Positions 13,293-53,524 of a stretch of DNA of 64,000 bases are shown piece after piece; the first letter of the stretch is position 1, and each line of letters opens with the position of its first letter. The translations under genes and the position numbers were made by a program. Under the pieces are notes generated by a model that was given only the letters and a program-made list of their open reading frames with translations, had not been told where the DNA came from and did no database searches. The stretch is from Candidatus Uhrbacteria bacterium (lineage in GTDB: Bacteria > Patescibacteriota > Patescibacteriia > UBA9934 > UBA10169), in NCBI GenBank assembly GCA_016187485.1, contig JACPJO010000005.1, positions 155,519-219,518 of the forward strand, written 5' to 3'.

Positions 13293-13360
13293 CTCCTTCC
13301 TTCTCTCCCGCCCCGTGCGGGATTTCTGCTTTCTGCAGCTAGCGCGGTACCAGGTACCGC

Positions 13361-14662
13361 CTAGACGGCTTGCTGGAATTTTTCTCTGTCCTCCCGCAAG
13401 ACATAAAAATCTGTAAAGCGGATTTTTTCGTTATATTTTTTCAGAAGATCAGAGTATTCCGCAATCGGCACATTCTCATATCCATGAATCATCTTCCGCG
13501 CCACAAATAGACCACTCTTCTCCCCTGACACATCCACTTTGGAAAGTGCGTTACGCGATTCCACGACAAAAAACCTTATTGCCTCTCGCTTGCATAACTG
13601 CATAAGCCCACCCAAGAGCAGGCGGTCTTTCTCGCGCTCCTCGTGGAACCGCATTACATGCTTGGCGGGAACGCGGCGCATCAAATGCTTGGACCAATAC
13701 TTCTCGGCCACAGCCGCCTCCTCCATCATTTCGACAACCTTACCATCACGCAGAGACGCGTAGGTATAAGGATCGGAAGGGATCACCAAGTCAATTTCAC
13801 GCTCGCGAAATACTTGCGTAAGGTAGTGCGTGAACCCCACGGCAGTCTTATGAAAATATACTTGGTCAATCATGTGGTAGCGTGCCAGCAGCATGTCCTC
13901 GAACGCGCGCACGCCATTTTCGGAAAGCTGCAAAACCATTTGCCCGTCCTCGATGGCAAACCCAAGCGAGCTGATGAGCCAATCAAGATCGTACATGCCG
14001 TACGCGACTCCGCAATAGTAAGAATCACGCAGAAGGTAGTCCATGCGGTCGCAATCTACCTCGCCCGAAATGAGCGCCTTGCACGCGCGCTGAAGCCGTG
14101 GAACCTCGTGCTCTAGATCTTCAAACCACGTAGACGGAACCACCTCTTCGTGGATGAGCGACGCAACATCTTGCGCCATCGTCTGTGGCAGCACGCCATC
14201 TTCGGCCAGCGTCTGCACAAGCAATACGGAGTAATCTTCGTGCCGCGCTTGGCGCATTGGTCTCTCCCCATTTACCCACCAACTGTTATTAAGTGGGAGC
14301 GATGTAAGTTTCGGAAAGACAGATTCGCTGGCATGAGAAAATGGCCCGTGTCCCACGTCATGCAGAAGCCCCGCAAGCCGCATGACTTGGGCGAGCTCGT
14401 CCCACACTTCCGCACCAAGCGCCACACGCGTGCCCTCAAGTGACGTGCGCATCCTTCCCGCCAGTCGCCCAGCCACATGCATGGCGCCAAGCACATGGGA
14501 AAAACGGTCGTGTGTAGCACCCGGATACACATACGCTTGCAGAAAAGAAAGTTGACTGATGAAGCGCAGCCGTTGAACAAACGGATGGTCAATGACCTTG
14601 TGCTCCAGGGCATTGAAGGGGATGCGTTTGTGGATGGGGTCGCGAATTTCAAACTCAGCCAT
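13361..14662 (-). CDS. dGTPase-like HD-domain triphosphohydrolase
   Basis: HDRFSHVLGAMHVAG and LHDVGHGPFSHASE motifs (metal-binding HD signature of the dGTP triphosphohydrolase family). Confidence 0.8.
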   Translation of the reverse strand: MAEFEIRDPIHKRIPFNALEHKVIDHPFVQRLRFISQLSFLQAYVYPGATHDRFSHVLGAMHVAGRLAGRMRTSLEGTRVALGAEVWDELAQVMRLAGLLHDVGHGPFSHASESVFPKLTSLPLNNSWWVNGERPMRQARHEDYSVLLVQTLAEDGVLPQTMAQDVASLIHEEVVPSTWFEDLEHEVPRLQRACKALISGEVDCDRMDYLLRDSYYCGVAYGMYDLDWLISSLGFAIEDGQMVLQLSENGVRAFEDMLLARYHMIDQVYFHKTAVGFTHYLTQVFREREIDLVIPSDPYTYASLRDGKVVEMMEEAAVAEKYWSKHLMRRVPAKHVMRFHEEREKDRLLLGGLMQLCKREAIRFFVVESRNALSKVDVSGEKSGLFVARKMIHGYENVPIAEYSDLLKKYNEKIRFTDFYVLREDREKFQQAV

Positions 14663-14697
14663 ATCGCCCCCTTTTATGGTTTTTAGATTTCTTTAGA

Positions 14698-15471
14698 TTA
14701 CTGCATCCACACAAAAAAGAGTAGAGCAGCCAGCATCAGGCGGTACGCGCCAAACCAGAGATATTTGCCTTTTGTAAGAAAGCGCAAAAGCCAGCGTACG
14801 GCAACAAGGCCGCTAAAGAAGGCGGCAAGAAATCCCACGAAAAGTGGGATCGCATCTATGGCCACTCCGCCCGACGCAATATCGAAAAACTTTTTGAGCC
14901 CAGCCACAGCAGTAATAGGAATACCGACAAGAAACGCGAGGCGAGCCGCCGCAATGCGATCAAGTCCGGCGCTCAAGCCAGCGATAATTGAGATGCCCGA
15001 TCTGGATGTGCCAGGAACAAGCGCCACGGCTTGAGAGAGAGTGACGAGAAGGGTTTGACGCCAGTTGCCCACAAGAGGTTGCTCGTTGCTGGTTGCTGGT
15101 TGTCGGTTCGAGTGCCAATCGGCGAAAATGAGCATGGCGCCCCAAAACGCGAGCGAACTGGCCACCACTGGCAACGACCGCAGATCGTTCACGCGTTCAA
15201 GCCACAGTCCGACAAGACCCACAGGAATGGTTGAGAAAAGGATCACCCAAAGCAGATGACGACGGTGAGTTACTACCTCGACAATGTCCCTCCAAAAAAC
15301 CGACAGGATGACCAGAAGAGTGGCCAAGTGGATCGTTGCATCAAAGGCCACATCTTGAAGAGGCCAGCCGAAAAGCTCCGGAAAAATTACCAAGTGCCCC
15401 GAACTCGAGATCGGGAGAAATTCCGTGATGCCCTGCACGATGCCGAGGATGAGAGCCTGGAGGATGGTCAC
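14698..15471 (-). CDS. uppP: undecaprenyl-diphosphate phosphatase
   Basis: ITEFLPISSSGH and PGTSRSG motifs; 8 TM helices; GTG start. Confidence 0.85.
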   Translation of the reverse strand: MTILQALILGIVQGITEFLPISSSGHLVIFPELFGWPLQDVAFDATIHLATLLVILSVFWRDIVEVVTHRRHLLWVILFSTIPVGLVGLWLERVNDLRSLPVVASSLAFWGAMLIFADWHSNRQPATSNEQPLVGNWRQTLLVTLSQAVALVPGTSRSGISIIAGLSAGLDRIAAARLAFLVGIPITAVAGLKKFFDIASGGVAIDAIPLFVGFLAAFFSGLVAVRWLLRFLTKGKYLWFGAYRLMLAALLFFVWMQ

Positions 15472-15486
15472 AACTATTCTCTTATT

Positions 15487-15506
15487 CCTGCCTGCCGGCA
15501 GGCAGG
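15487..15506 (-). terminator. 20-bp perfect GC-rich palindrome CCTGCCTGCCGGCAGGCAGG downstream of the last paralog
   Basis: Read directly, 9 bp downstream of the stop at 15515. A/T-rich flank. Confidence 0.5.
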
Positions 15507-15514
15507 CTCACGAA

Positions 15515-17254
15515 TTAGCCGCGCGAGGTTCCTGATTCAATAAACTTATAGTAACACTCTTTGCAGTATACCGCCCGTTTTGGATACACCTTATTCTTCC
15601 CAACGGAAATGCTCTTTTGGCACTCCGCGCACAATGCCGGCTCCACGATCGCCATGTTGAGCTCGGCGTAGAGGTCCATGAGACGCCGCGTGGCATGCGA
15701 CCTGGGCGGCGCAATCTTGAGCGCGCGGTAAATCGCAAGCTCGGGCACGAGGTATGAAAACCGCCGGTCGGAGACATCATCGCGATACACCGTCTTCGTC
15801 ATGGCGTCGTCTGCGCGATCAGGAATCTCGCTCGTTGCATGGATCATGCTCGCATCCATAGCGGCACCCTCCGCTCCCTCGCTTGTCACATCAACATCAG
15901 GCATACCGAGTTTGATCAGCTCCTCCTTCGGCGTGTCATAGATGTAGCGTGCGCCGCATCCGCTCCAGTGCTGGGTCGAAAACTTCGCCGATGGTAAGTC
16001 ACCATACTCTCCCCTCTCAAGCATCGCGCACTTGAGTGCATCCACGGTCTTCCAATATTCCTCCTCCGTGTATTGCTTGTTCAAGATGCAAAACTTTTTG
16101 TGCTTGAGCCCAATGCATCCGAAACAGTTTTCGCAATCCATGCACGCATGACAATATTCGCACTCAAGACAGCGCGTGAGAAGCGAGAGCGAGTAGCGAG
16201 TCTTCGAGCTGTACCCATTCCCGATACCATAGTAGCAATCCGACGCACCATTTACCGCCGCACACATGTAGCAATCGCTCGACGGCACACCATAGGCGAT
16301 ATTGACCCATCCAAGATCGGCACACCCTTTGCAGACATAAAATGCATCGCGGATGCGCGTTGAATCGTAAATGTATTCCCCCGTCACGTCTTCTGCATGC
16401 ACGTTCCAGTTTTCCGGCCAGGCGGCGTGCGCAATAAGATCTTTGAAGCGCTGCTCGTATTCCGCGCGTACCGCATACGAAGAAAGGTCAACCTCTGAAC
16501 GTCGTTTCTTCCACTCCGCTTCAGTAAGCTGTTCATTCCACCAAAGATATTTCGCATTGCGTTTATTCGTCGCACCGAAGCAAAACTCGCAGTTTCGACA
16601 ATCGAAGAGAAACGCACCTGAGAGACAATCGAGGCATTCGCGCAGATACAAACAGTCCGCGATGTTTTGAGAATGGACGACATTGTAGGAGCGCGAGATG
16701 TGGGTGGAGAGCGCGACCTCGGCAGAGTCTTCCATGTCCGATACGTTCATCGAAAAAACAGAATTCTTTGATTTGCACGCCAAGACGAAGTAGCTGTTCT
16801 GATCCCCACGCGAGATGAACGCGAGAGAATTTTCCGGCTGGACGTAATTAAAGTTCGCCGAACGTGGTACGGCAAGAGACAGCTTGTAGAGTTGATCGAC
16901 AAACGAGCGAGAGAGATCAAGCTCGCGTCCGTGCGACGTGAAGTCTTGCTTGAACCACTCGTCATCCGGGATCACACGGATGCCACTTGCGGGGTGAACG
17001 ACGGAGATAAGCGGTTTGCCGCCATTCGGTTGTGCGTTGTACCACATGTCAAACATGACGATGTGGGCATTCATGAGCTTCATCCGCGTCATGGGCGCAT
17101 ATTTCGACGGCGGGACGTTGTATTTGCGATACTGCGCAATCTCCGTGTCGTCCATCATCCACTTCGTCCCAAGCACAGCACACGTCCGCTCCCCGGGTTT
17201 GGTAGCATCGAGGATGGCTTTGACTTTTGCATCGTAGTTGGAGGTTTTGCTCAT
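15515..17254 (-). CDS. cysteine-rich paralog family protein P6 (about 27 Cys, no signal peptide, C-terminal CxxC...CxxC zinc-ribbon-like motif)
   Basis: N-terminus MSKTSNYDAKVKAILDATKPGERTCA, FLFDCRNCEFCFGATNKR, CENCFGCIGLKHKKFCILNKQY. Shares these blocks with five neighbours. Confidence 0.7.
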   Translation of the reverse strand: MSKTSNYDAKVKAILDATKPGERTCAVLGTKWMMDDTEIAQYRKYNVPPSKYAPMTRMKLMNAHIVMFDMWYNAQPNGGKPLISVVHPASGIRVIPDDEWFKQDFTSHGRELDLSRSFVDQLYKLSLAVPRSANFNYVQPENSLAFISRGDQNSYFVLACKSKNSVFSMNVSDMEDSAEVALSTHISRSYNVVHSQNIADCLYLRECLDCLSGAFLFDCRNCEFCFGATNKRNAKYLWWNEQLTEAEWKKRRSEVDLSSYAVRAEYEQRFKDLIAHAAWPENWNVHAEDVTGEYIYDSTRIRDAFYVCKGCADLGWVNIAYGVPSSDCYMCAAVNGASDCYYGIGNGYSSKTRYSLSLLTRCLECEYCHACMDCENCFGCIGLKHKKFCILNKQYTEEEYWKTVDALKCAMLERGEYGDLPSAKFSTQHWSGCGARYIYDTPKEELIKLGMPDVDVTSEGAEGAAMDASMIHATSEIPDRADDAMTKTVYRDDVSDRRFSYLVPELAIYRALKIAPPRSHATRRLMDLYAELNMAIVEPALCAECQKSISVGKNKVYPKRAVYCKECYYKFIESGTSRG

Positions 17255-17269
17255 ACAAACTATTCGCTT

Positions 17270-17281
17270 ATTCGCACGAAT
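17270..17281. promoter_or_regulatory. ATTCGCACGAAT (imperfect copy of the ATTCGCGCGAAT motif), 15 bp upstream of the P6 start
   Basis: Part of the conserved TATTCGCTTATTCGC(A/G)CGAATTAG block. Confidence 0.45.
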
Positions 17282-17290
17282 TAGCCGCGC

Positions 17291-19033
17291 TTACCCGTTC
17301 TTTTCAATAAACCCATGATAACAATTCATGCAGTATACTCTCCGCTCGGGAAACGTGAAATTTTTATACGTGGTCGTTTTGGCGCTGCAGGAGGCACAGA
17401 CAACTTCGATCGCAAAGGGGGAGTTCGCGTGGCGGAGCCAGTGTGTGAGGCGCGTAATAAAATGCCGCCGTGGGAATGGCCAGCGCTTTTCTTTGTAGAT
17501 CGCAAGCTCTTTTGGCACGATGCTGAAATCGCGATCGAGCTCCTCATCATGGATCGGCGTGTTCACATGCTCGGACGAGACCTCATCAATGCAATCCGGG
17601 ATATCCTCGATGCGAAGCCGTACCACATGCGCCTCCTCCCGTTTCGGCGCAAGCACCAATCCTTGCTTTGGATCCACACGAATCGCGCCGAACCTCTCGA
17701 GGTCTCGCTCGCGGTAATCAAAGTACACGGCACCCGTCGAGTGTTCAAAACCCGAGAGCGAAAACTTTCCGGGAAAAAACTCGCCATAACTTCCGTCATC
17801 GAGCATCGCGCACTTGAGCTCATCTACACGTCTCCAGTATTCCTCTTTTGGATACGGCTTGTTGAAGATGTGAAACTCCTTTTTGTGAAGTCCAGCACAC
17901 CCGAAGCAACGCTGGCAATCATCGCAGACGGCACAATACTCAAGTTCTACTCCATTGCTGCATCCCATCGTAAACTTGTTATCAGCGCCGTTCGTGTCCC
18001 CCGTGCTCATGTAGGTCCGTGTCGCCCAGCCAAATCCACTACAATACGCGCAATCGTTCGCCTCAATGCCGAATCGGCAGTGGTAACAGCCCGTGCACTT
18101 GTCGAGCCAATAACTATATCCATCGCAATTAACACAAAAGTTCAGGTGCTCACCGCGACTGTTTTCGTTTCGGATCCCGAAGGAGGCTGGCCAGATACTC
18201 TGTTCGTGCCAGAGTCTGTAGAACTTCTCGAGCCACGCATCTGCGGTCGATCGACAGCCGAGATCTACTTCCGCGCGCCGCTTTTTCCATTCTGATTCCG
18301 AGAGTTGTTCGTTGAACCACAGATATTTTTTCTGCCGTTTGTTCGTAGCCCCGAAGCACAGCTCGCAATCGCGGCAATCAAAAAGGAAGGAACTTTTGAG
18401 ACACCGATAACAGCTGAAGAGATATTCCGAATCGGCAATATTATGCGAATCGCTTATGGAAAACGAGCGGGCAATGTGTGTTCCATTGACCACGTCCACA
18501 CAGTCCTCCGCCTGAAATGCTGCGTAGGTGTAGAGAGAGCGAAGAGCCTGCGAGGCGCACGACATATAACTCTCCACGCTTTTCCACGAACCGACCGCGA
18601 CCGACGCAGCATCCACATCACGATTGCGTTTGGCACGCATGGGAACCATCGTCACGAGATCCCAGATTTGATCGAACACCGGACGGGAGGGATCAATGTC
18701 TTGATACGTGGAGGAAAAATCATGTTTGTACCAATCAATGTCCTCAACGACTTTGAACGGAAGATCGGGATGAATGGCAGAGACGATCGGCTTGCTCGAG
18801 AACACATCACGGTTCCAAAAAATGGCCAACCCGGTGTTGTAGCCATTCAGCATATTCATGCGCGTACCAGGTTTCACTTTCGACGGCGGGACACGAAACT
18901 TTTTACAGATAGCGATTTCGCTTTCATCCAACACCCACGTCTCGCCCGTCAATGCGCAAACCCGCTCCTCCCCTGCCTTCAAGCCGGCGAGGATTGCATC
19001 GAGCTTGGTGTCAAAGTTGGGTGTGTTGGACAT
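17291..19033 (-). CDS. cysteine-rich paralog family protein P5
   Basis: Start trimmed to MSNTPNFDTKLDAILAG by alignment to the paralogs. It abuts the P4 stop with a gap of about 1 bp. CDDCQRCFGCAGL motif. Confidence 0.65.
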   Translation of the reverse strand: MSNTPNFDTKLDAILAGLKAGEERVCALTGETWVLDESEIAICKKFRVPPSKVKPGTRMNMLNGYNTGLAIFWNRDVFSSKPIVSAIHPDLPFKVVEDIDWYKHDFSSTYQDIDPSRPVFDQIWDLVTMVPMRAKRNRDVDAASVAVGSWKSVESYMSCASQALRSLYTYAAFQAEDCVDVVNGTHIARSFSISDSHNIADSEYLFSCYRCLKSSFLFDCRDCELCFGATNKRQKKYLWFNEQLSESEWKKRRAEVDLGCRSTADAWLEKFYRLWHEQSIWPASFGIRNENSRGEHLNFCVNCDGYSYWLDKCTGCYHCRFGIEANDCAYCSGFGWATRTYMSTGDTNGADNKFTMGCSNGVELEYCAVCDDCQRCFGCAGLHKKEFHIFNKPYPKEEYWRRVDELKCAMLDDGSYGEFFPGKFSLSGFEHSTGAVYFDYRERDLERFGAIRVDPKQGLVLAPKREEAHVVRLRIEDIPDCIDEVSSEHVNTPIHDEELDRDFSIVPKELAIYKEKRWPFPRRHFITRLTHWLRHANSPFAIEVVCASCSAKTTTYKNFTFPERRVYCMNCYHGFIEKNG

Positions 19034-19034
19034 A

Positions 19035-20750
19035 TTATCCTCTCTCCCCAAGATACTCCCAATAGCACTTTTGACATAGAATGCGACGCATAGGAAATGT
19101 CGAGTTTCGGTACGTCGTAACTTCCGCGTGGCACTTCTCACACATCGCCTGCTCTTCACGCGGGCCGTTCGAGAACCGAAAACGGTTTTTCATGGAGAGG
19201 AATGGGTGCTCACTCGGCACGGCAACATTTTGCTTGCGGCAAAATGCCAGCTCGGCTTGTGTTACAACAAACGGACGGTGGAGAATGGGATCGAGAACAG
19301 ATTTGTTGATGAAGTTTTCCCATGCGGGATCATCGGCACGATCCGGAAGGTCGTCCGGTGAGAGAAGATCGGGCGTCGTCGATCCTATTGATGTTTCATA
19401 CATGGGGGCGCCGTGAGCACGAAGCTCGTCCGGTAAGTATTCCGCATACAAGTCACCCATCGAGAACTGGAAACCTGGCTCGGAAAATGCAGCAGGGAAA
19501 AATTCGCCGTACTCTCCACGATCAAGCATTGCACATTTCAGTTCATCGAGCTTCTGCCAATAATTCGCCTCGTCATATTGCTGATTCAGAATGCAAAACT
19601 TCTTGTGCCGTAAACCAACGCAGCCGAAACAATGCTCGCAATCATAACAGTTGAGAGAGTACTCCATGCCGATCGAACGCCACGTGCGGAAACAGAAACG
19701 GTTTTGGCTTCCCGAGAGCATGTCGCAACACTCATACATCTGTCCGCCCTTGCCACCCCAACCGGTAAACGCCGACTCTTGAAGTTCGAGCGTCGCATAG
19801 CAACGAAAGCAATCCGTTGAGTCGTAGTTGCGATAAGCAAACTTACAACGTGTTGAGTCGGAAATATGCTCCCCCGTGCACCCCTCCGAGCCAACATGGA
19901 CATACGCCGGCCAGACCGACTGACGGATCATCTCGAGAAACTGTTCATGCTGTTTTTGATACACGGCGCGCGATGAGAGATCAACTTCTTGTCGCCGCTT
20001 TTCCCATTCCTCTTTGGAAAGTTGCTCGTTCCACCACAAATACTTTTTATGCAACTGATTGCTCGCACCAAAACAGAATTCGCAATCAACGCAATCATAG
20101 AGGAATGCACTTGATGAACAGCCGTTGCAAGAAAAACAATCAACACAGCTAAAGCACTTGCTCGAATAGCTCGTCTGAAAACAAAATCGGCATCGACTGT
20201 TGTCGATCACGTCCATGCAATCTTCGTTCTCAAGACCGAGGAACGCATGAAGCACACGCCGGTTATACATAAGCGCGAAGGCCAAGTAGGCATCCTCACA
20301 CTTGATAAGGTCGACGCCGGTACAGCGAAGGTTCGAACCATCATCGCGGAGCGCCCCGACAGGAATACGGTGAGCCAGAGGAAGAAGCTGGTCGAAAAAT
20401 GATCGTTGAGAATCAAGTAACTGCCCCGGTTCTAGAAACTCTTTCGAGAACCATTCTTTATCGTGAATGATGTTAAACGGCGAGTCAGGGTGCACAAAAC
20501 TCCAGATTGACTCTCCCGTCTCGGCATGTGGTTTTTTCCAAAGCGCTAATCCCGACACAAACCCCATTAAGTGCCGCATTCTCGTATACGGCGCCCGCTT
20601 ACTCGGCGGGACGTTGAATTTTCTGTACCAGCCAATCTCTTCATCCGTCATGTTCCACTTTTCTCCCGTCAACGCACAAACTCTCTCGCCCGGCTGCGTG
20701 ACGTCGAGAATGGATTTTACTCTCAGGTCAAAATATTGAGTCTTGGACAT
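19035..20750 (-). CDS. cysteine-rich paralog family protein P4
   Basis: MSKTQYFDLRVKSILDVTQPGERVCALTGEKWNMTDEEIGWYRKFNVPPS, CEHCFGCVGLRHKKFCILNQQY. Confidence 0.7.
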   Translation of the reverse strand: MSKTQYFDLRVKSILDVTQPGERVCALTGEKWNMTDEEIGWYRKFNVPPSKRAPYTRMRHLMGFVSGLALWKKPHAETGESIWSFVHPDSPFNIIHDKEWFSKEFLEPGQLLDSQRSFFDQLLPLAHRIPVGALRDDGSNLRCTGVDLIKCEDAYLAFALMYNRRVLHAFLGLENEDCMDVIDNSRCRFCFQTSYSSKCFSCVDCFSCNGCSSSAFLYDCVDCEFCFGASNQLHKKYLWWNEQLSKEEWEKRRQEVDLSSRAVYQKQHEQFLEMIRQSVWPAYVHVGSEGCTGEHISDSTRCKFAYRNYDSTDCFRCYATLELQESAFTGWGGKGGQMYECCDMLSGSQNRFCFRTWRSIGMEYSLNCYDCEHCFGCVGLRHKKFCILNQQYDEANYWQKLDELKCAMLDRGEYGEFFPAAFSEPGFQFSMGDLYAEYLPDELRAHGAPMYETSIGSTTPDLLSPDDLPDRADDPAWENFINKSVLDPILHRPFVVTQAELAFCRKQNVAVPSEHPFLSMKNRFRFSNGPREEQAMCEKCHAEVTTYRNSTFPMRRILCQKCYWEYLGERG

Positions 20751-20761
20751 ACTATTCGCTT

Positions 20762-20773
20762 ATTCGCGCGAAT
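20762..20773. promoter_or_regulatory. ATTCGCGCGAAT perfect 12-bp palindrome, 11 bp upstream of the P4 start
   Basis: Read directly. Confidence 0.5.
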
Positions 20774-20785
20774 TAGAGATCATTG

Positions 20786-22516
20786 CTAGCCACGTTCTTC
20801 CATGTACCGAAGATAGCATGGTCTGCATAACACGCGCCGACGGCTGGAAAAAAGTGCGTTTCGGCTTGTCGTAACTGAGGTGCAGCAGATAGCGCATGTC
20901 GTTTCTTCAGGGATAGGCACATTCGAGTGGCGTACAAGGTGGAGAAGGCGAGTGAGAAAGTGCTTGTCGGGAATTGGTAATCGGTGTTTTTGATAAAAGG
21001 CAAGTTCCGCTGGTGTGATCGTGTATAAACGATTAAGTGACTCATCCAGAATTGGTTTCCCAACATGTTGGGAAACATCAATATCCAGAAGTCGGTCAGG
21101 TAGTTCAGATGCTTTGAGCAGCCCTTCGGACTCATTGATATTCCCTTTCGTAGGATCGAACGTCGGCGCGCCGAATTTCTTGAGTTCATCGTCACTATAC
21201 CCAAAGTAAAACTCCCCCATCGAAAACTGAAATCCTGTCTGCGAAAGACTCGCAGGAAAAAACATGCCGTACTCGCCACGGTCGAGCATCGCACACTTGA
21301 TCTCGTCCACCCGCTGCCAATATTCCTCTTCGCCGTACGGCTTGTTGAAAATGTGAAACTTCTTTTTTTTGAGACCGACGCAGCCAAAACAGTGCTCGCA
21401 GTCGTAGCAGTCCATGCAATATTCTAAGTCTTGGCACCGCCATGAGCGTGAGCAGAATTTGAGGTTGTGATAATACGCGATATCCGCCGAGCAGTACGCC
21501 GCGTCTCCCCACCCCAACCACACGACACTCATGCTGTCACGATCATCCAGACTCATCCAGCATTGAAAGAGGTCCGTGCTCCCTTCGACCCAGTAACTCT
21601 CGCGACATCTTGTGGCGCGCACCAAATACTCTCCCGTGCTCTCCACGTCTGTCGCAAAGTTGAAATGGTCGCGGAAATACCCTTCCCCACGAATCATCTC
21701 AAGGTATCTTTCCGAGCACTCGTTCCATGTACGCCGTGATCGGAGGTCGACCATCTCAAGACGTTTACGATACTCTCCCTCCGACAGCTGTTCGTTCCAG
21801 AATATAAATTGTTTATCCTTCTTATTCGTTGCACCGAAGCAGTCTTGGCAGCGGCTACAATCAAAGAGAAACGCGCTGTTGATACAATCACCGCATTGGA
21901 AACAATAGGTACAGTGATGCATGTTCTCGGCCGCGTTGATGTGATAGCTCTCATTTACCCGAAGGGTGTTCGTGATACAGGCCGAATCACTTCCATGAAA
22001 ACTCACCGACGCATACAAAACACGTTGTAAATCCGCTCCGCCAAACAAAAGATAGGTGTCTTGGCATTTGATCATGTCCACGCCAACGCTGTTGGTACTT
22101 GACCCCTCATCGCGCAGAGCACCCACAGGAATCGAATATGCAAGTTGTTGAAACTGAGCAAAGAATGGTTCTCCAGGATCGAGCTCTCTTGTTGTTTGTG
22201 CGAATTCACGGTTATGCCAGTCGCGGTCGGGAATCACTTGATATGGACTGTCTGGGTGCACAAACGTAAGAAGCGGCTCCTTAGTCTCCGCATGCGGCTT
22301 TTTCCAAATGGCTATCCCAACAGGAAAGCCCAGGAGCTGTTTCAATCGCGGAATCGGCGCGCAGGAATGCGGCGGCACGTTGAACTTTTTGTACCATCCA
22401 ATCTCCTCCTCGGTCATGTTCCACTTCTCCCCCGTCAACGCACAAACCCTCTCGCCAGGTTTTATCGCGTCGAGGATGGATTTTACTTTGGCATCGTAGT
22501 TAGGTGTCCGATTCAT
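20786..22516 (-). CDS. cysteine-rich paralog family protein P3
   Basis: MNRTPNYDAKVKSILDAIKPGERVCALTGEKWNMTEEEIGWYKKFNVPP, CEHCFGCVGLKKKKFHIFNKPY. Confidence 0.7.
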   Translation of the reverse strand: MNRTPNYDAKVKSILDAIKPGERVCALTGEKWNMTEEEIGWYKKFNVPPHSCAPIPRLKQLLGFPVGIAIWKKPHAETKEPLLTFVHPDSPYQVIPDRDWHNREFAQTTRELDPGEPFFAQFQQLAYSIPVGALRDEGSSTNSVGVDMIKCQDTYLLFGGADLQRVLYASVSFHGSDSACITNTLRVNESYHINAAENMHHCTYCFQCGDCINSAFLFDCSRCQDCFGATNKKDKQFIFWNEQLSEGEYRKRLEMVDLRSRRTWNECSERYLEMIRGEGYFRDHFNFATDVESTGEYLVRATRCRESYWVEGSTDLFQCWMSLDDRDSMSVVWLGWGDAAYCSADIAYYHNLKFCSRSWRCQDLEYCMDCYDCEHCFGCVGLKKKKFHIFNKPYGEEEYWQRVDEIKCAMLDRGEYGMFFPASLSQTGFQFSMGEFYFGYSDDELKKFGAPTFDPTKGNINESEGLLKASELPDRLLDIDVSQHVGKPILDESLNRLYTITPAELAFYQKHRLPIPDKHFLTRLLHLVRHSNVPIPEETTCAICCTSVTTSRNALFSSRRRVLCRPCYLRYMEERG

Positions 22517-22524
22517 ATTCGCCT

Positions 22525-22796: not shown

Positions 22797-22802
22797 ACAA
22801 AA

Positions 22803-22834: not shown

Positions 22835-22849
22835 ATTTATCCACTATGT

Positions 22850-35489: not shown

Positions 35490-36167
35490 ATGGGGAACAG
35501 CGACCCTTCCCAGACAGAGGAGCTCGAACGACTCCGCAAACAGGTGCAAGCGCTCGAGGCTGCGATCGCAGCCAAAGATCGCGAGATCGGGACCAAAGAC
35601 GGGATCATCAGCCAATTCGCCCGTCGCGTCGTGAACCTGCGCTCACAGATCCGTGAGAGCGAGGAGACGTCGCACACCGACGGCCTCACCGGACTCCTCC
35701 TCAAGACCGAGCTGGAACGCGCCCTCCCCGGCATCGTACGCCGCGCCAAGAACAGCAGCGAGCCGTTGAGCATGATCTTCGTGGACCTGAACGACTTCCG
35801 CGAGGTCAACACGGCGCACGGTCACATGGGAGGCGACGCGGTTTTGCGAGAGGCCGCGCGCCGTCTCCGGCGCGTGCTCCGCCTCACCGACCTGGCAGGA
35901 CGTGTGGGCGGCGAAGAGTTCGCCGTCATCCTGCCGGGGACGCCCAAGAAGATGGCGGAGCGTGTCGCGACGCGCATCTACGCCGCCATCGCCAAGGATC
36001 CCTACCGCATCCCCGATGATGGCGAGGTCATCATGAGCGCCAGCGTGGGCTGGGCATGCGTCGCGGACACCGGCTACAGCCACGAGGAACTCTACAAGGC
36101 CGCCGACCAGGCCATGTACCGCGGAAAAGCAAAGAAGGGCTCAGGCGAGCCCACCTTGTCCGACTGA
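35490..36167 (+). CDS. GGDEF-domain diguanylate cyclase with N-terminal coiled coil (GC-rich)
   Basis: GGEEF active-site motif, RVGGEEFAVIL. N-terminal LERLRKQVQALEAAIAAK coiled-coil. GC3-biased. Confidence 0.75.
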   Translation: MGNSDPSQTEELERLRKQVQALEAAIAAKDREIGTKDGIISQFARRVVNLRSQIRESEETSHTDGLTGLLLKTELERALPGIVRRAKNSSEPLSMIFVDLNDFREVNTAHGHMGGDAVLREAARRLRRVLRLTDLAGRVGGEEFAVILPGTPKKMAERVATRIYAAIAKDPYRIPDDGEVIMSASVGWACVADTGYSHEELYKAADQAMYRGKAKKGSGEPTLSD

Positions 36168-36192
36168 ACGTTCTTTTTCTCCTTCACCTTCG

Positions 36193-36220
36193 CACCCCTC
36201 CGGGTGCGTTTCTGCTTTTA
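36193..36220 (+). terminator. intrinsic-terminator-like hairpin GCACCCctccGGGTGC plus GTTTCTGCTTTT
   Basis: Read directly after the GGDEF stop. A member of the conserved 3' module family. Confidence 0.55.
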
Positions 36221-43293: not shown

Positions 43294-44043
43294 ATGACCG
43301 ACCCCGATTCCCCGACCGAGACCGAGCCCACGGACAAGATGACCACCGGCGACAAGATCCTCTTCAGCATCGTGCTCCTCATCATCATCGGAAGCGCCTG
43401 GTTCAGCATCAGCAACACGCGGGATCTCCGGAAGGACAAGGCGCAGATCGCCATCCTGGAGCAGAAGTTGGCGACGCACGACGAGTACATCGACCAGCAC
43501 CTCTCGGGAGACCTGCCGGAGAACTTCATCCTCGGGCAGTGGGTGACCGACCAGGAGAAGGCCATCAAGGACATCAACGCCGCACTGGGCCCCTACAAGG
43601 ACAACGACGTCCTGCCGGTCATCTCGGGCGCACTCAAGGTCCACAACGTCGCCACGCTCGTCGGGCTCGTGAAGGCCCTCGACAGCGACATGGACGGGAT
43701 CACGAACGAACGCGACCTCTGCCCGAACGAGTCCACGATGGATCCTGCCACCGTCCCCGACGTGAACCAGGACGGCTGCAACGACGATACGGACAGCACC
43801 GCCCGACTGGCCAAGTTCGGGATCAACGGCGTCAAGGGCGTGCGGAAGGTCGGCGCCAGCTGGCGCGTGACCTACACCGCCACGGCCAAGTCCCCGGCCG
43901 ACGAGGCCGAGATCAAGTTCGAGGTCTCGTGCCTGGCCCTCGACAACGAGGGCAAGGAGCTCGCGGCAGACGCCACGATCGCCGACGGATGGACGCCGAC
44001 CAACGTCGACAAGTGCTTTGTCCGGCCCGCCTCCGCAAGCTGA
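43294..44043 (+). CDS. GC-rich membrane-anchored protein with thrombospondin-type-3-like DxDxDG calcium-binding motifs
   Basis: N-terminal TM helix ILFSIVLLIIIGSAWF. DSDMDGITNERDLCPNE and DVNQDGCNDDTD motifs. GC3-biased. Paralogous to 44379..45086. Confidence 0.55.
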   Translation: MTDPDSPTETEPTDKMTTGDKILFSIVLLIIIGSAWFSISNTRDLRKDKAQIAILEQKLATHDEYIDQHLSGDLPENFILGQWVTDQEKAIKDINAALGPYKDNDVLPVISGALKVHNVATLVGLVKALDSDMDGITNERDLCPNESTMDPATVPDVNQDGCNDDTDSTARLAKFGINGVKGVRKVGASWRVTYTATAKSPADEAEIKFEVSCLALDNEGKELAADATIADGWTPTNVDKCFVRPASAS

Positions 44044-44127
44044 TCGGCACCAACGCGACAGGGGCCGGCTCGGGGCAACACTCCGAGCCGGCCTCCGCCG
44101 CTCACTCGCTCTTTCTCTCTCCTCAAA

Positions 44128-44157
44128 CCTCCCATCCCTGGGAGGTTTCGTGCTTTT
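44128..44157 (+). terminator. hairpin CCTCCCatccctGGGAGG plus TTTCGTGCTTTT (conserved 3' module)
   Basis: Read directly downstream of the stop at 44043. Confidence 0.5.
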
Positions 44158-44378: not shown

Positions 44379-45086
44379 ATGTCCGACCCCGCTTTGGGCG
44401 CTTCTGGCGCCACCAACAAGAACAAGGAAGATGAGCCCGGAGCGCTCGACAAGATCTTCAGCGCGAGCGTTCCCGTCTGGGTGTTCCTCATGTTCGTCAT
44501 CATGCTCGGGCTCATGCACTTCTTCTGGGGCGTGAGCCGGGGACGCACGGACAAGATCGCGAGGCGCGTTGCCCAAATCGCCGTGCCCCTCGAGCACGCG
44601 GCGAAGGCCAGCAACAAGTCCACGACCGAGATCGCGGACTCACTGGTCGAGGTGGGCAACAGCGAGACGCTCGTGCGGCTCCGCGCGCTCGACCCGAAGG
44701 TGGTGGATCACCTCGTGGCGGAGTTCACCGACCAGGACGAGGACGGCCTCCCGGACTACAAGGACACCTGCCCCATGAAGCCGCCACGGAACTTCCCGCA
44801 AGGCTTCCCGCCGACCTACTACCCCAACGACTGGAACAAGGACGGCTGCGACGACGACGAGCGCGACGTCTCCGGCCTCCTCGCCACGATCGTCACGGGA
44901 AGACTCGGCTGGCGTGAGATCGTCGGCCACGAGACTCGGTTCGTCTACCAGGCGAACGGGTACACCGTCTTCTGCGTCCCGCTCGACGCGAACGGCCGGC
45001 CCTACGAGCCCACCACCCCCGGGGGCCTGGCGTCGGACCCGCCCAACGTGGGCACCTGCCTCGTCCGGGGCCCGTTCTACCACTAG
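44379..45086 (+). CDS. GC-rich membrane-anchored paralog with DxDxDG motifs
   Basis: RBS AAGGAAG. TM helix VWVFLMFVIMLGLMHFFW. DQDEDGLPDYKDTCPMK, NKDGCDDDERD. Confidence 0.55.
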   Translation: MSDPALGASGATNKNKEDEPGALDKIFSASVPVWVFLMFVIMLGLMHFFWGVSRGRTDKIARRVAQIAVPLEHAAKASNKSTTEIADSLVEVGNSETLVRLRALDPKVVDHLVAEFTDQDEDGLPDYKDTCPMKPPRNFPQGFPPTYYPNDWNKDGCDDDERDVSGLLATIVTGRLGWREIVGHETRFVYQANGYTVFCVPLDANGRPYEPTTPGGLASDPPNVGTCLVRGPFYH

Positions 45087-45105
45087 TACGTTCCTTCTTT
45101 TCAAT

Positions 45106-45131
45106 CCAGCCCACGGCTGGATTTCGCTTTG
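45106..45131 (+). terminator. hairpin CCAGCCcacGGCTGG plus ATTTCGCTTTG preceded by a CT-tract (conserved 3' module)
   Basis: Read directly after the stop at 45086. Confidence 0.5.
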
Positions 45132-45165: not shown

Positions 45166-46455
45166 ATGTTACACCAAACCGACCCACAGATTGCCGAGTA
45201 TCTCGAGGCTGAGCTGGAGCGTTCTCGACGCGGACTCGAGATGATTCCTTCCGAGAACTTTGTAAGTCAAGCCGTACTCGAGGCGCTCGGTTCCGTTGGC
45301 ACCAACAAATACTCCGAAGGATATCCCGGCATGCGTTACTATGGGGGGAACGAATTCGTGGACGCGATCGAAAATGTGGCACGCGATCGGGCAAAAGCGT
45401 TGTTTGGAGTTTCGCACGCTAATGTTCAGCCGGCGTCGGGATGTGCGGCCAACATTGCCGTCATGTTTGCTTTATTGAACCCAGGCGACACGCTCATGGG
45501 AATGTCCCTTCCCTTTGGTGGTCACATGACACACGGACTCAAAGTAAATTTCTCTGGCCGGTATTACAACTCCGTTCAATACACGGCGACAAAAGATGGA
45601 TGGATGGATTTTGAAGAGATGCAAAAACTTGCCGAAGAACACAAACCAAAACTCATCATTGTAGGAGCCACGGCTTATCCGCGCGTGATTGATTGGGCAA
45701 AGGCACGACAGGTTGCCGACACGGTTGGAGCGTTCCTTTTAGCCGACATCTCTCACGTTGCAGGTCTTATTATTTCTGGTGACCATCCCTCCCCCGCCGG
45801 TATCGCGGACGTCATCACTACGACCACACACAAAACGCTTCGTGGCCCGCGTGGCGCGATGATTCTGTGCAACGGCAATCCTTCACAACCGCTTAAACCC
45901 GCCGACGTGACAAAAGAGAATATCCCCACGCTTGTTGATCGTGCGATCATCCCAGGTATTCAAGGCGGGCCGCATAATCACCAAACCGCCGCCATCGCCG
46001 TCGCTCTCCACGAGGCGGCACGAGATTCATTCAAAGAGTACGGCCACCAAATCGTGAGGAATGCGAAAGCGCTCGCGGGCGCACTCACGGGGCATGGTTT
46101 TGAGCTTGTCACGGGAGGAACTGATAACCACTTGATGGTCGTCGACCTCACGAACAAAGGGCTAAGCGGTAAGGAAGCAGGAATTGCACTCGATAAAGCC
46201 GGTATCACGGTCAACAAAAACACCGTGCCATTTGACATACGCAAGCCATTCGACCCTTCGGGCATCCGGCTTGGCACGCCGGCGCTCACGACCCGTGGCA
46301 TGAAGGAGAGCGAGATGATCGAAATCGCCGGATACATTGCAGAGGCCGTTGCCCAACATACCGATGAGGCAAAACTTGCCGCCATCAAACAGTCCGTCCG
46401 CACCCTCACTGACCGTTTTCCCCTTTACCCTTCCCTCACTTATCTCTCTAAGTGA
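45166..46455 (+). CDS. glyA: serine hydroxymethyltransferase
   Basis: EMIPSENFVS, GYPGMRYYGG, PLP-Lys context TTTHKTLRGPRG. The long GC-rich N-terminal extension in the track is rejected as an artefact. Confidence 0.9.
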   Translation: MLHQTDPQIAEYLEAELERSRRGLEMIPSENFVSQAVLEALGSVGTNKYSEGYPGMRYYGGNEFVDAIENVARDRAKALFGVSHANVQPASGCAANIAVMFALLNPGDTLMGMSLPFGGHMTHGLKVNFSGRYYNSVQYTATKDGWMDFEEMQKLAEEHKPKLIIVGATAYPRVIDWAKARQVADTVGAFLLADISHVAGLIISGDHPSPAGIADVITTTTHKTLRGPRGAMILCNGNPSQPLKPADVTKENIPTLVDRAIIPGIQGGPHNHQTAAIAVALHEAARDSFKEYGHQIVRNAKALAGALTGHGFELVTGGTDNHLMVVDLTNKGLSGKEAGIALDKAGITVNKNTVPFDIRKPFDPSGIRLGTPALTTRGMKESEMIEIAGYIAEAVAQHTDEAKLAAIKQSVRTLTDRFPLYPSLTYLSK

Positions 46456-46469
46456 TCACTAAGTGAGGA
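46443..46469. repeat. REP-like element TCTCTCTAAGTGATCACTAAGTGAGGA (family A) overlapping the glyA stop
   Basis: Read directly. Followed by GATAACTGGGGTTGACAAGAA, a 50-bp block nearly identical to 52688-52737. Confidence 0.7.
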
Positions 46470-46521
46470 TAACTGGGGTTGACAAGAACAAGAAAAAGTG
46501 TTTACATAACCACAGCTTAAC

Positions 46522-46556
46522 AAATCTCCCCCTTGAGCTGGGAGATTTGTTTTTTC
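46522..46556 (+). terminator. rho-independent terminator AAATCTCCCccttgagctGGGAGATTT plus T-run
   Basis: 9-bp stem followed by GTTTTTTCT, downstream of glyA. Confidence 0.6.
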
Positions 46557-46566
46557 TAAACAAAAC

Positions 46567-46592
46567 TCTCTCTAAGTCATCACTAAGAGAGA
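46567..46592. repeat. REP-like element CTCTCTAAGTCATCACTAAGAGAGAA (family A), 5 bp upstream of the RAYT start
   Basis: Read directly. Confidence 0.7.
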
Positions 46593-46596: not shown

Positions 46597-47250
46597 ATGC
46601 GGCTAGAAGAGTTTACAAATGGGGAGTTTTACCATATTTATAATCGTGGCGTAGACCGGCAGACAATGTTCCGAGAGAGAGAGGACTATCTCGTCTTCCT
46701 CGGATACCTTTATCAGTTTAATAGTTCCCAGAGCATTAAAACTTCTCGACACTCTCGCACTACACTTGTGTCTATTATCAGCTACTGCCTCATTCCCAAC
46801 CATTTTCATCTGGCAATGCGTCAGGAACAGGACGGCGGAATCTCCAAGTATCTCCACAAAATCGGTATGCGCTATGCAAAGTACTTTAATGCAAAATATG
46901 GGAGAAAAGGCCGATTCTTTGAAAACGCCTTCCAGGCCAAGCACATCTCATCAGATGCATACCTAGAGCATATACCACGATACATTCACTTAAATGCCCT
47001 GGATCTCACTGCCCACGATTGGCGTAATGGGAGTGTAAGAAATTGGAACGATGCTCTTGCCCACCTAGAACAATACCCATGGTCGAGTCACCACGCATAC
47101 AGCACAAGGTCACAAGCCATTCCAATTATTGAGATGCGGATTGTAAAGGAAATGTTTCCTACTCCAAAGGAATATATTTCATTTCTTAAACAGTGGTCTC
47201 AAGCCGAAATCTCCACGTTGTCTCTTAGTGATCTCTTAGTGACAACTTAG
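46597..47250 (+). mobile_element. IS200-like / REP-associated tyrosine transposase (RAYT, HuH Y1 transposase) gene
   Basis: YHIYNRGVDRQTMF and IPNHFHLAM (HuH) motifs; about 217 aa. Flanked on both sides by family-A REP-like palindromes. Confidence 0.65.
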
Positions 47251-47256
47251 AGAGAA
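47221..47256. repeat. REP-like element TCTCTTAGTGATCTCTTAGTGA...CTTAGAGAGAA (family A) overlapping the RAYT 3' end
   Basis: Read directly. Confidence 0.65.
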
Positions 47257-51541: not shown

Positions 51542-52137
51542 GGAAGTTTCCCGAACCCATCCAAACTCTCATGACAGAGTTCATGCGTCTTCCAGGCGTC
51601 GGACCAAAGACGGCGCTTCGATATGTCTACGCGCTCTTGAAACAGGGCGCAGCCGCGCGTGAATCGTTTGCGGAAGCCGTCAATAATCTTTCCCACATCC
51701 AGCTCTGCTCGCGGTGTTTTGTCCACGCGGAATCCCCTCTCTGCCCGCTCTGCAGCGACCCTACAAGGGACGACCGGCTGTTGTGCGTGGTCGCAGAGTC
51801 GCGAGACATTGCCACCGTAGAAGCAACGGGAACGTATCGCGGACGCTACCACGTGCTTGGGGGATTTCTCGATCCTGTCGAAGGAGTCACGTCGGAGCAT
51901 TTGCGCGTGCGCGAGCTCGTAGAACGCGTGATGACCGACCAGAAAATTGAAGAAATCATTTTGGCAATCTCCCCTGACCTTTTGGGGGAAATGACCATGA
52001 GCCATGTCTTCCAAGCGCTGAAACCTTTGAGCCGGCGCGTGACACGCTTGGCGCGCGGGCTGCCCACCGGCGCCGAACTAGAGTTTGCTGATGAGGTGAC
52101 GCTTGGGGATGCATTTGCTGGTCGGCGCGAAATATAA
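51538..52137 (+). CDS. recR: recombination protein RecR
   Basis: LPGVGPKTA HhH motif, C4 zinc finger CSRCF...CPLC, Toprim segment. Confidence 0.9.
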   Translation: MRKFPEPIQTLMTEFMRLPGVGPKTALRYVYALLKQGAAARESFAEAVNNLSHIQLCSRCFVHAESPLCPLCSDPTRDDRLLCVVAESRDIATVEATGTYRGRYHVLGGFLDPVEGVTSEHLRVRELVERVMTDQKIEEIILAISPDLLGEMTMSHVFQALKPLSRRVTRLARGLPTGAELEFADEVTLGDAFAGRREI

Positions 52138-52175
52138 AACGATGCCCGGCGACTTTGTGCCAAGCATCGTTTTTG
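52138..52175. terminator. bidirectional rho-independent terminator AACGATGC...GCATCGTT plus TTTTG between convergent recR and rplU
   Basis: 8-bp perfect stem read directly. Confidence 0.65.
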
Positions 52176-52670: not shown

Positions 52671-52700
52671 CTTTCTCTCTAAGTCATCACTAAGTGAGGA
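52671..52700. repeat. REP-like element CTTTCTCTCTAAGTCATCACTAAGTGAGGA (family A), followed by a TTGACA-containing block
   Basis: Read directly; near-identical to 46443-46490. Confidence 0.7.
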
Positions 52701-52761
52701 TAAGTGGGGGTTGACAAAGAAAAACGCTAAAGTAAGAAGAGAAAGTTTTTTGTCCGTGTTT

Positions 52762-52787
52762 TCTCTCTTAGTGATCACTAAGAGAGA
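52762..52787. repeat. REP-like perfect palindrome TCTCTTAGTGATCACTAAGAGA (family A)
   Basis: Read directly. Confidence 0.75.
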
Positions 52788-52905
52788 TTTGGGGGTGGCG
52801 ATTGACGGGAGTGAAGTTTTGTGCGAAAGTGCCCCACTGGTGCGCACGGCAGGGAGCCGAGATGCGCATCAGCAAACCCCCACGGAAAATTCCCAGGAGT
52901 GCCCA

Positions 52906-53463
52906 ATGGACCCGTACGTTCTCATCGCAACCGTCTCCACCCTCGCCGCCCTCGGTGCCCTGTGCGTGATCTTCTCCTCCCTCTACCGCGCCGAGCAGCG
53001 GAAGCTCGAGCTCAAGACCGAGGCATACGACGGACTAGCCAAGGAAGCCAAGCGCGTGGCGCGAGCAGCCGACAAGTACAAGGAGCTGAGCTCGCTCTCG
53101 CTCGATGTGCTTTTCGACCTGTACCTGTTCAACATCATCTCCACGGCGAAGGGACAGAGTGTCAGCCTTTGCACGTCCATCGCCAAGAGCATGCTCGGTC
53201 TCTGCGCCAAGCGCGGATGGACCTTCGAGGAGACCATGGCCTACTTCGAGCAACGGTTCGTCTTCTACAGTGAGGACCGTCCCTCCATGGAGCCGATCGT
53301 CACGGCGATCCGCGGCATCATCACGACAAGCGAGTTCCGCATCGGCGTGGACGGTGCCGTCGCGTGGTTCCCAGCTTCCCCCGAATACGAGGCCGCCGCC
53401 ACGACGTGGCTGCACCTGCGTTCAACAAGAGACAAGCCTGATCCCCATCCGCCCGCTGCCTAG
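52906..53463 (+). CDS. GC-rich hypothetical membrane protein (N-terminal TM helix)
   Basis: AGGAG RBS 8 nt upstream. TM helix VLIATVSTLAALGALCVIF. GC3-biased. Confidence 0.5.
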   Translation: MDPYVLIATVSTLAALGALCVIFSSLYRAEQRKLELKTEAYDGLAKEAKRVARAADKYKELSSLSLDVLFDLYLFNIISTAKGQSVSLCTSIAKSMLGLCAKRGWTFEETMAYFEQRFVFYSEDRPSMEPIVTAIRGIITTSEFRIGVDGAVAWFPASPEYEAAATTWLHLRSTRDKPDPHPPAA

Positions 53464-53498
53464 CCGCAGCAACAACTTCGTCCGTTCTTTCTTCACGT

Positions 53499-53524
53499 CC
53501 ACGCCTCGCGTGGATTTCTGCTGT
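53499..53524 (+). terminator. hairpin CCACGCctcGCGTGG plus ATTTCTGCTGT preceded by a CT-tract (conserved 3' module)
   Basis: Read directly after the stop at 53463. Confidence 0.5.

Follow-up and report, generated by a model that had tools for sequence, protein, structure and literature searches.

The window analyzed here is a stretch of 64,000 nucleotides from a Candidatus Uhrbacteria bacterium of the Candidate Phyla Radiation (CPR; Patescibacteria) (assembly GCA_016187485.1, contig JACPJO010000005.1, positions 155,519 to 219,518 of the forward strand), and the element under study is a recurrent 3' module, made up of a C/T tract, a GC stem-loop and a tail opening TTTC(T/G), that follows genes with a high GC content at third codon positions (GC3). 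The window has a GC content of 54%, with the majority of genes on the minus strand in tight operons. A Logan contig of the same genome (L105) extends the sequence 8.8 kb leftward of the window; 79 kb of this genome was read in all, from a contig of 303 kb, and the class tallies below cover those 79 kb. The best identities of the window's GlyA (45166-46455) were to proteins of Candidatus Uhrbacteria metagenome-assembled genomes (79-83%), one window protein is entered at NCBI as hypothetical protein HYW18_03745 of Candidatus Uhrbacteria bacterium, and the same strain was present in many Logan assemblies (runs SRR12113383-SRR12113433). Rfam and tRNA scans of the window returned no matches.

GC3 was bimodal, with core genes at 0.43-0.65 and a second class at 0.74-0.95. 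This GC3-rich class consists of 13 genes (ten in the window and three in the L105 flank) that form 11 transcription units. Third codon positions in the class were nearly free of A and T (A3+T3 ~0.1), with C3 of 0.47-0.62 and G3 of 0.24-0.41 in 12 of the 13 genes; the other, 60962-62446, had C3 of 0.35 and G3 of 0.39. The majority of the encoded proteins look membrane-bound or secreted, and 10 of the 13 have no similarity to one another, the related pair being the tandem paralogues 43294-44043 and 44379-45086, which carry a thrombospondin-type-3 (TSP3)-like motif. Apart from this pair and a GGDEF protein, no class protein reached the Pfam threshold; within the island at 10620-12776 the one weak match was holin-like (12300-12776; E 0.001). 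A search of 5.8 billion proteins with 44379-45086 returned only the protein itself, and 60962-62446 had no match among 5.8 billion proteins or among 1.84 billion representatives, the latter a library in which it did not find itself and which may lack it. Many GC3-rich units are either convergent with the tightly packed core operons or oriented antisense to them; the GGDEF gene, for example, is divergent from secD and convergent with 36218-37489.

Anatomy and Enrichment of the 3' Module

A preliminary description of this stretch had reported five copies of the module, just 3' of the plus-strand genes ending at 13292, 36167, 44043, 45086 and 53463, and all five were found in place (Table 1). The third, fourth and fifth of its example strings were given out of coordinate order and belong to 45091, 53483 and 44111. 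The count of at least five was exceeded, with three further copies in the window and three in the L105 flank. The genes directly upstream of the five reported modules had a GC3 of 0.79-0.94, which bears out their description as compositionally atypical.

Each module begins with a purine-poor C/T tract of 12-25 nt, followed by a GC stem of 5-7 bp (up to 9 bp counting A-U extensions) with a loop of 3-6 nt. The tail starts with TTTC in 10 of 10 non-duplicate copies, the next base being T or G and T recurring at positions 8-10, and 6-8 of the 12 nt 3' of the stem are T in every copy except 11860-11906. The hairpins alone fold at -10.2 to -15.9 kcal/mol, and the five reported copies had z-scores of -3.2 to -4.6 (RNAfold). 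The C/U tract was unpaired in every fold and the sequence remained purine-poor from the stop codon to the loop. Seven of 13 tracts open with GTTC(Y/G), often directly 3' of the stop codon, and several, a minority of all, contain CCTCC or CTCCT, the cores of an anti-Shine-Dalgarno (anti-SD) sequence. All copies are on the coding strand at transcription-unit ends, 0-65 nt 3' of a stop codon; of the five reported ones, three sit at convergent gene junctions.

Table 1. GC3-rich genes, their promoters and the 3' modules that follow them.
Feature	Position	Strand	Description
GC3-rich island	10620..12776	+	Promoter TTGACAAAAT..TGATAAATT at 10530-10558
Island genes	10620-10811; 10855-11844; 12010-12237; 12300-12776	+	GC3 0.88; 0.95; 0.86; 0.85, respectively
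Gene	13026..13292	+	GC3 0.79; 88-aa membrane-like orphan; ends in module 1
Gene	35490..36167	+	GC3 0.83; GGDEF diguanylate cyclase-like (PF00990, E 3e-36); ends in module 2
Promoter of 43294-44043	43181-43209		TTGACAAAATGG..TGCTAAATT
Gene	43294..44043	+	GC3 0.94; N-terminal transmembrane (TM) segment and TSP3-like D-x-D motif; ends in module 3
Gene	44379..45086	+	GC3 0.92; TM segment and TSP3-like motif; ends in module 4
Gene	52906..53463	+	GC3 0.83; 185-aa TM orphan; ends in module 5
Gene	60962..62446	-	GC3 0.74; 494-aa orphan, signal-peptide-like N-terminus; ends in minus-strand copy
Module 1	13293..13335	+	Tract CTCCTTCCTTCTC; hairpin TCCCGC-cccgt-GCGGGA (13306-13322); tail TTTCTGCTTTCTG; -10.2 kcal/mol, z -3.4; between convergent genes 13026-13292 (+) and 13361-14662 (-)
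Module 2	36170..36220	+	Tract GTTCTTTTTCTCCTTCACCTT; hairpin CGCACCC-ctcc-GGGTGCG (36191-36208); tail TTTCTGCTTTTA; -12.9 kcal/mol, z -4.6; between GGDEF gene (+) and convergent 36218-37489 (-); orthologous copy in L107
Module 3	44108..44157	+	Tract GCTCTTTCTCTCTCCTC; hairpin (AAA)CCTCCC-atccct-GGGAGG(TTT) (44125-44148); tail TTTCGTGCTTTT; -15.9 kcal/mol
Module 4	45090..45131	+	Tract GTTCCTTCTTTTC; hairpin AATCCAGCC-cac-GGCTGGATT (45103-45123); tail TTTCGCTTTG; -13.3 kcal/mol
glyA promoter	immediately 3' of module 4		TTGTCA..TAGAAT
Module 5	53484..53526	+	Tract GTTCTTTCTTC; hairpin TCCACGC-ctc-GCGTGGA (53498-53514); tail TTTCTGCTGTAT; between gene 52906-53463 (+) and convergent MraY-like gene 53537-54490 (-)
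Extra copy	12795..12839	+	Tract GCTCTTTTCTCTC; hairpin GGGGAC-ccaatc-GTCCCC (12808-12825); tail ATTCCCCCTTTTCT; behind GC3-rich gene 12300-12776
Extra copy	11860..11906	+	GGGGAC hairpin (11875-11892); tail ATTCCCCCCGTCC without T run; behind GC3-rich gene 10855-11844
Minus-strand copy	60896..60944	-	Tract CCCTCACTTACCT; hairpin ACCGCCC-catt-GGGCGGT (60925-60908); tail TTTCGTATCTAA; behind gene 60962-62446
Three flank copies	L105, just left of window	both	Each with GC-rich gene, C/T tract in 3' untranslated region (UTR), GC hairpin and TTTC tail

Searches for the module were Python descriptor scans; an ungapped MAFFT alignment shifts stems of unequal loop length out of register. The strict descriptor called for a perfect GC stem (5 bp or longer) whose preceding 20 nt are at least 80% pyrimidine and whose following 12 nt include at least 6 T. 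It returned six sites in the window, all on the plus strand, compared to 0.04 expected from 100 dinucleotide shuffles of the window, and six sites in 2.07 Mb of other CPR loci (Poisson P ~5e-8). It is a real pattern, and one specific to this genome. A near-miss inside recJ, at 6060-6040 on the minus strand (ctatttctcctc-TCCCGCG-tgaagat-CGCGGGA-ctttttccc), is probably either chance or an internal attenuator.

The C/T tract and GC hairpin were present at 11 of 11 GC3-rich unit ends and at none of 22 core-unit ends, with a Fisher P between 4e-4 and 5e-9 that varied with stringency. Among the 11 GC3-rich ends, the tract abuts the stem in eight and six pass the strict scan. Pyrimidine content in the 15 nt upstream of the hairpin was 27-60% at core ends compared to 87-93% for six class copies, as picked automatically; at the remaining class ends the automatic pick took another hairpin, or the tract lay nearer the stop codon. 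At their 5' flank the core terminators of this genome carry either an A-tract or an A-U extension of the stem, the clear cases with A/T-extended stems being those of glyA (46519-46557), the hairpin shared by recR and rplU (52136-52173) and 60007-60032; the glyA and recR terminators lack the pyrimidine tract, as had been stated.

An ordinary species-wide terminator consensus would leave the link to GC-rich genes as a sampling effect, those genes needing terminators of their own in an operon-dense window. Such a consensus would be in keeping with the scarcity of clear terminators at core units in the window and with a T-rich tail containing an early C at two core ends (55633-55618 on the minus strand, GGGAG-TTTTCGATTTTC, and the end of 57616, TTTGTTTTCTTT). 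Over the 79 kb read it was, however, contradicted by the absence of the tract from all 22 core ends, from which it follows that the module is not the species-wide terminator consensus, by the A/T-extended stems of the clear core terminators, and by the three GC3-rich genes outside the window that also fit the rule, and we consider it improbable. The preliminary description had named a motif found after most genes, whatever their composition, as the outcome that would count against it; nothing of the kind was seen in the 79 kb.

The TTGACAA-type promoters that had been ascribed to the cassette genes are present, but they are not cassette-specific. TTGACAAA is the normal sigma-70 -35 consensus and serves the normal-GC gene 36218-37489 as well; several GC3-rich units use other -35 variants.

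Conservation in Related Genomes

The GGDEF unit has an orthologue in JGI metagenomes (L107) with 61% protein identity and the same convergent neighbor. The L107 GGDEF gene has a GC3 of 0.79 compared to 0.58 for the adjacent gene, and the persistence of high GC3 at 61% identity beside such a neighbor indicates a maintained state rather than un-ameliorated foreign DNA. Its 3' UTR retained the (A)CGTTC start, is pyrimidine-only and retained the TTTCT tail, and the composition of the tract was kept despite indels. The stem CGCACCC/GGGTGCG of the window (36191-36208) corresponds to CCCCGCC/GGCGGGG in L107, with three of seven pairs changed on both sides and both versions able to fold. On this comparison of a single orthologous pair, the hairpin of the GGDEF unit carries the signature of a selected RNA or DNA structure and appears vertically inherited, not recently inserted.

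In the closest relative with a long contig (L110; GlyA 83%), the slot between murC and glyA holds GC3-rich plus-strand genes, one of them a distant TSP3-like homologue, so the slot appears to house a resident, fast-evolving family. The unit 52906-53463 is absent from L110, and the intergenic DNA there is too diverged to define junctions. In five other relatives (L001, L003, L005, L007, L112) the murC-glyA slot is occupied by another minus-strand gene, which is moderately GC-enriched and lacks the module.

Probable Intrinsic Termination and the Pyrimidine Flank

Judged from sequence, the modules are probably factor-independent (intrinsic) terminators that close self-contained units of a distinct GC3-rich class of genes, mostly orphan and mostly coding for membrane or secreted proteins. 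Each module would close one unit (a single gene or a few genes behind a sigma-70 promoter), with the GC hairpin followed by UUUC(U/G)NNUUU stopping RNA polymerase before antisense read-in to neighboring genes, and the modules would insulate the GC3-rich units from the surrounding core operons. On the opposite strand it is purines that follow the hairpin, and the modules should therefore terminate in one direction only. The copies show the predicted hairpin, the U-tract and the location of intrinsic terminators and, in one orthologous pair, the compensatory change, except that 11860-11906 fails the U-tract test. Over 37 nt (the C/T tract and GGGGAC hairpin) this copy matches 12797-12833 at 97% identity, and it probably represents a weak or decayed terminator within the island.

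Several points weigh against this reading. That transcription actually ends at the modules we infer from their form and position. The U-tracts are interrupted, with 6-8 T in 12 nt and no T run in 11860-11906, so some copies may be weak. In two L105 copies (14225 and 17073) the C/T tract adjoins the stop codon and lies 30-50 nt from the hairpin, and may there relate to the stop codon or 3' UTR, not to the hairpin. The 3' ends of the GC3-rich genes in the murC-glyA slot of L110 match the module only loosely, and only about six core ends offer a convincing terminator for comparison. As for a function of the pyrimidine flank, the full anti-SD core CCTCC is present in only some tracts and the tract is far shorter than a classical Rho utilization (rut) site. 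Termination in model bacteria is favored by adenines immediately upstream of the hairpin, and pyrimidine-rich RNA marks rut sites; with upstream adenines as the favorable context there, the pyrimidine flank found here is non-canonical.

Within the intrinsic-terminator reading, the unpaired C/U tract would have a function of its own, most likely as a single-stranded landing site and alternatively as a C/U-rich regulatory 3' UTR segment. A termination or RNA-binding factor would land on the tract, a putative Rho-type YC-rich site, and aid the weak, interrupted U-tract. No rho gene lies within the 79 kb read, where rho was not specifically looked for.

It is also conceivable, if doubtful, that the C/U tract is an element in its own right, compatible with a terminator hairpin beside it, that co-regulates the class either by seed pairing with Shine-Dalgarno regions or as a YC-rich site for Rho or another RNA-binding protein. 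This would fit the unpaired, purine-poor state of the tract, the retention of its composition in the L107 orthologue, the recurrent GTTC(Y/G) start and the CCTCC or CTCCT cores of several copies, as well as the class coding strands, which are C-rich and G-poor at third positions, as Rho substrates are. Seed pairing is countered by the minority of tracts with a full anti-SD core, and a Rho site by a tract length of 12-25 nt, short for rut.

Three more specific explanations of the tract were rejected. Anti-SD mimicry as its general role fails on the fact that only some copies contain CCTCC or CTCCT. A reading of the tract as a reverse-strand Shine-Dalgarno leader is suggested by module 1, which reversed gives AAGGAAGGAG-N7-ATG, but the other copies have no start codon, and it is the plus-strand frames that hold the coding signal (GC3 periodicity, the GGDEF match at E 3e-36 and the TSP3-like paralogues). 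In-frame read-through peptides past the stop codon were discounted, open frames being a trivial outcome of purine-free sequence.

A stronger version, in which the tract, the variable GC hairpin and the UUUC(U/G) tail act as one dedicated 3'-end signal that marks and co-regulates a separate pool of GC3-rich orphan envelope genes in a CPR episymbiont, read by a specific factor (Rho-like or another RNA-binding protein) or acting as a C/U-rich riboregulatory seed, we regard as unlikely. If it were true, distinct codon usage and a distinct terminator would be two faces of one accessory-gene expression regime. Less likely still is a variant in which the signal is the footprint of some undescribed means of gene capture.

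Common Descent, and Possible Mobility or Import

The preliminary description had argued that a shared 3' end pointed to a common origin or to a common insertion mechanism, a cassette or a vehicle akin to miniature inverted-repeat transposable elements (MITEs), not to independent terminators. In this form the module would be the 3' end of gene cassettes inserted by a common mechanism, either an attC-like site or the end of a MITE or insertion sequence. Several observations are of the kind that such a vehicle would produce: orphan genes that are not related to one another end in a common 3' element whose flanks are conserved and whose hairpin varies, the 37-nt pair is 97% identical behind two unrelated genes, unit 52906-53463 is missing from the closest relative L110, and two Y1-transposase-like genes and palindromes resembling repetitive extragenic palindromes (REPs) lie nearby.

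The proposal did not hold up on closer analysis. The stems are all different and unrelated in sequence, the only near-identical copies being the 37-nt pair. The suggested search for target-site duplications (TSDs) at cassette borders gave none above chance: at nine border pairs the longest shared direct or inverted words were 5-9 nt, within the shuffled range (maximum 10-11), with neither terminal inverted repeats (TIRs) nor TSDs. The units lie scattered over more than 60 kb (from 10.5 to 62 kb in the window) in both orientations, every one has a promoter to itself and they form no array, and there was no integrase family among the Pfam-annotated gene calls. The flanks GTTCYTTY... and TTTC(T/G)... 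are not mutually complementary, unlike R'' and R' of attC, and do not match the attC core consensus. At 61% identity the GGDEF unit is still syntenic and its stem carries compensatory substitutions, the sister species has homologous TSP3-like genes in its murC-glyA slot, and the REP-like palindromes nearby belong to a different sequence family. Insertion by a mobile vehicle is accordingly very improbable.

Direct common descent of modules is apparent from sequence only for the tandem paralogues 43294 and 44379, whose modules 3 and 4 have ..CAAW-stem-TTTCG..CTTT in common, and for the 37-nt pair in the 10.5-12.8 kb island. The likeness among copies is mainly shared functional constraint within one gene class.

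An imported signal, in which a single high-GC donor (a lineage or an element) supplied the GC3-rich genes and the module is that donor's style of terminator, would account for the uniform codon signature (C3 ~0.5-0.6, A3+T3 ~0.1) across unrelated genes, for the nearest non-self GGDEF homologues (at most 49% identity) being in Acidobacteria-type organisms, and for class membership that is patchy between relatives. We nevertheless consider it rather unlikely. The large protein libraries yielded nothing beyond a self-match for 44379-45086 and nothing at all for 60962-62446, and the high GC3 kept in both lineages after divergence to 61%, beside a neighbor at 0.58, looks like equilibrium. The promoters are of the same type as core promoters. 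A viral origin in particular was rejected, three class proteins having no relatives in IMG/VR.

Neighboring Repeats, Palindromes and Other Features

Two palindromic elements adjoin modules. Module 3 is preceded in the same 3' UTR by a very stable extra hairpin, GGGGCCGGCTCGG..CCGAGCCGGCCTC, at ~44061-44095 (about -32 kcal/mol). A 17-nt palindrome, GCGGTACCWGGTACCGC, has two copies in the 79 kb (window 13344-13360; L105 14122-14138), both of them between convergent genes and adjoining a pyrimidine-tract terminator.

A REP-like family, TCTCTCTAAGTGATCACTAAGAGAGA, is located at 44162-44187, 44247-44267, 46443-46468, 46567-46592, 47219-47254, 52674-52699 and 52762-52787, and in L105 just upstream of 15421; CTCTCTAAG within it occurs 7 times compared to 0.25 expected. 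The family flanks both ends of a Y1_Tnp gene (46597-47250; Pfam E 4e-7, GC 0.44) that is IS200-like and resembles REP-associated tyrosine transposases (RAYTs). This gene is single-copy and absent from L110, where its repeats were not searched for. Copies also lie upstream of several GC-rich units, and two copies are joined to a TTGACAA -35 box. Another Y1_Tnp-like gene of low GC (60037-60714, minus strand; Pfam E 1e-4, just below the cutoff) is flanked by palindromes with ACACTCGGTGT at 60007-60032, ~60720-60742 and 60853-60877, three exact copies compared to 0.07 expected. A single CPR window would then contain two RAYT/REP-like systems.

Within mnmA (9323-10468, minus strand; tRNA 2-thiouridylase) a 30-nt palindrome, GGGGTCAGACCCCGTACGGGGTCTGACCCC, occurs three times (9431-9460, 9525-9554, 10017-10046) and is translated in frame as GSDPVRG(Q/L)TPF-like inserts, reminiscent of the in-frame palindromic gene inserts of Rickettsia. 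Six tandem paralogues of ~570-580 aa at 15515-27027 (minus strand) lie beside TraG/TrwB-like ATPase genes and are separated by a 31-nt, partly palindromic intergenic motif, AAACTATTCGCTTATTCGCGCGAATTAGAGA, in 6 copies; no Pfam family was found for them in a scan of 15515-17254 only.

A 43-nt perfect palindrome at 12935-12977, AACTACCAAAAATCAGGAGCT-T-AGCTCCTGATTTTTGGTAGTT, looks like a bidirectional terminator. Seven of seven Logan contigs carrying the neighboring HD gene end there. Strain variation was rejected as the cause; the break probably arose in assembly, as an artefact of a palindrome that exceeds the k-mer, which we take to be k = 31.

Both murC and secD (43150-43210; 35455-35490) start right after GCTACACTT(T/C)(T)CCCC, without a Shine-Dalgarno sequence and with a TACACT -10-like box ~6 nt ahead of the ATG, an arrangement suggestive of leaderless mRNAs. 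The promoter of murC and the divergent one of 43294-44043 overlap in a 27-nt, partly palindromic block (43179-43205), which recurs at 37503-37529.

Significance

Two gene classes in one small genome are set apart here by codon composition as well as by terminator architecture, a difference that outlasted a species split. Very little is known of gene-expression signals in the CPR, and a full-text literature search pairing intrinsic terminator with Candidate Phyla Radiation found no paper. If the pattern is genome-wide, it would offer a sequence handle for an accessory, fast-evolving, mostly envelope gene set of episymbionts and a natural case for the effect of a pyrimidine flank on an intrinsic terminator. 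If it is merely a local terminator habit, it is still a useful annotation rule for the lineage.

Comparison With Known Systems

Integron cassettes likewise combine unrelated, often orphan open reading frames with a hairpin element, attC, that has conserved flanks and a variable middle. The modules differ in having neither the R'' (RYYYAAC) and R' (GTTRRRY) core sites nor an integrase, attI or array, and their units have their own promoters, are dispersed in both orientations and in one case are syntenic across species. REPs and REP doublets (REPINs) with their RAYT (Y1) transposases, and MITEs, are also extragenic palindromes downstream of genes, and Y1-like genes are present in the window; copies of a REP or MITE, however, have a common palindrome sequence, whereas the module stems all differ, and neither TIRs nor TSDs accompany them. 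The genuine REP-like families of the window (TCTCTCTAAGTGATCACTAAGAGAGA and ..ACACTCGGTGT..) have sequences distinct from the modules.

Rho-dependent terminators share with the module a C-rich, G-poor, unstructured and YC-dinucleotide-rich RNA upstream of the release point, but rut sites extend over ~60-80 nt, compared to 12-25 nt for the module tract, and only a few nucleotides separate that tract from a classical hairpin and U-run. C/U-rich seeds of 3' UTRs and small RNAs (sRNAs) similarly place an unpaired C/U-rich motif directly 5' of a terminator hairpin, some with CCUCC-like anti-SD cores; many module tracts, by contrast, lack such a core. Examples are reportedly the UCCCCUG of the Staphylococcus aureus icaR 3' UTR and the UCCC motifs of the Rsa sRNAs.

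The canonical intrinsic terminators of Escherichia coli and Bacillus subtilis, like the module, place a GC stem-loop and a U-rich tract just past the stop codon at the end of a unit, and their structure is likewise kept by compensatory change. They differ in having an A-tract as 5' flank where the module has a pyrimidine-only tract. The U-tract of the module is also interrupted in a fixed way (UUUC, then U/G, then UUU at positions 8-10), and the module form is confined to one compositional gene class, the core genes using A/T-extended hairpins. Intrinsic terminators themselves are known; what is new here is the class-restricted pyrimidine flank of a probable intrinsic terminator.

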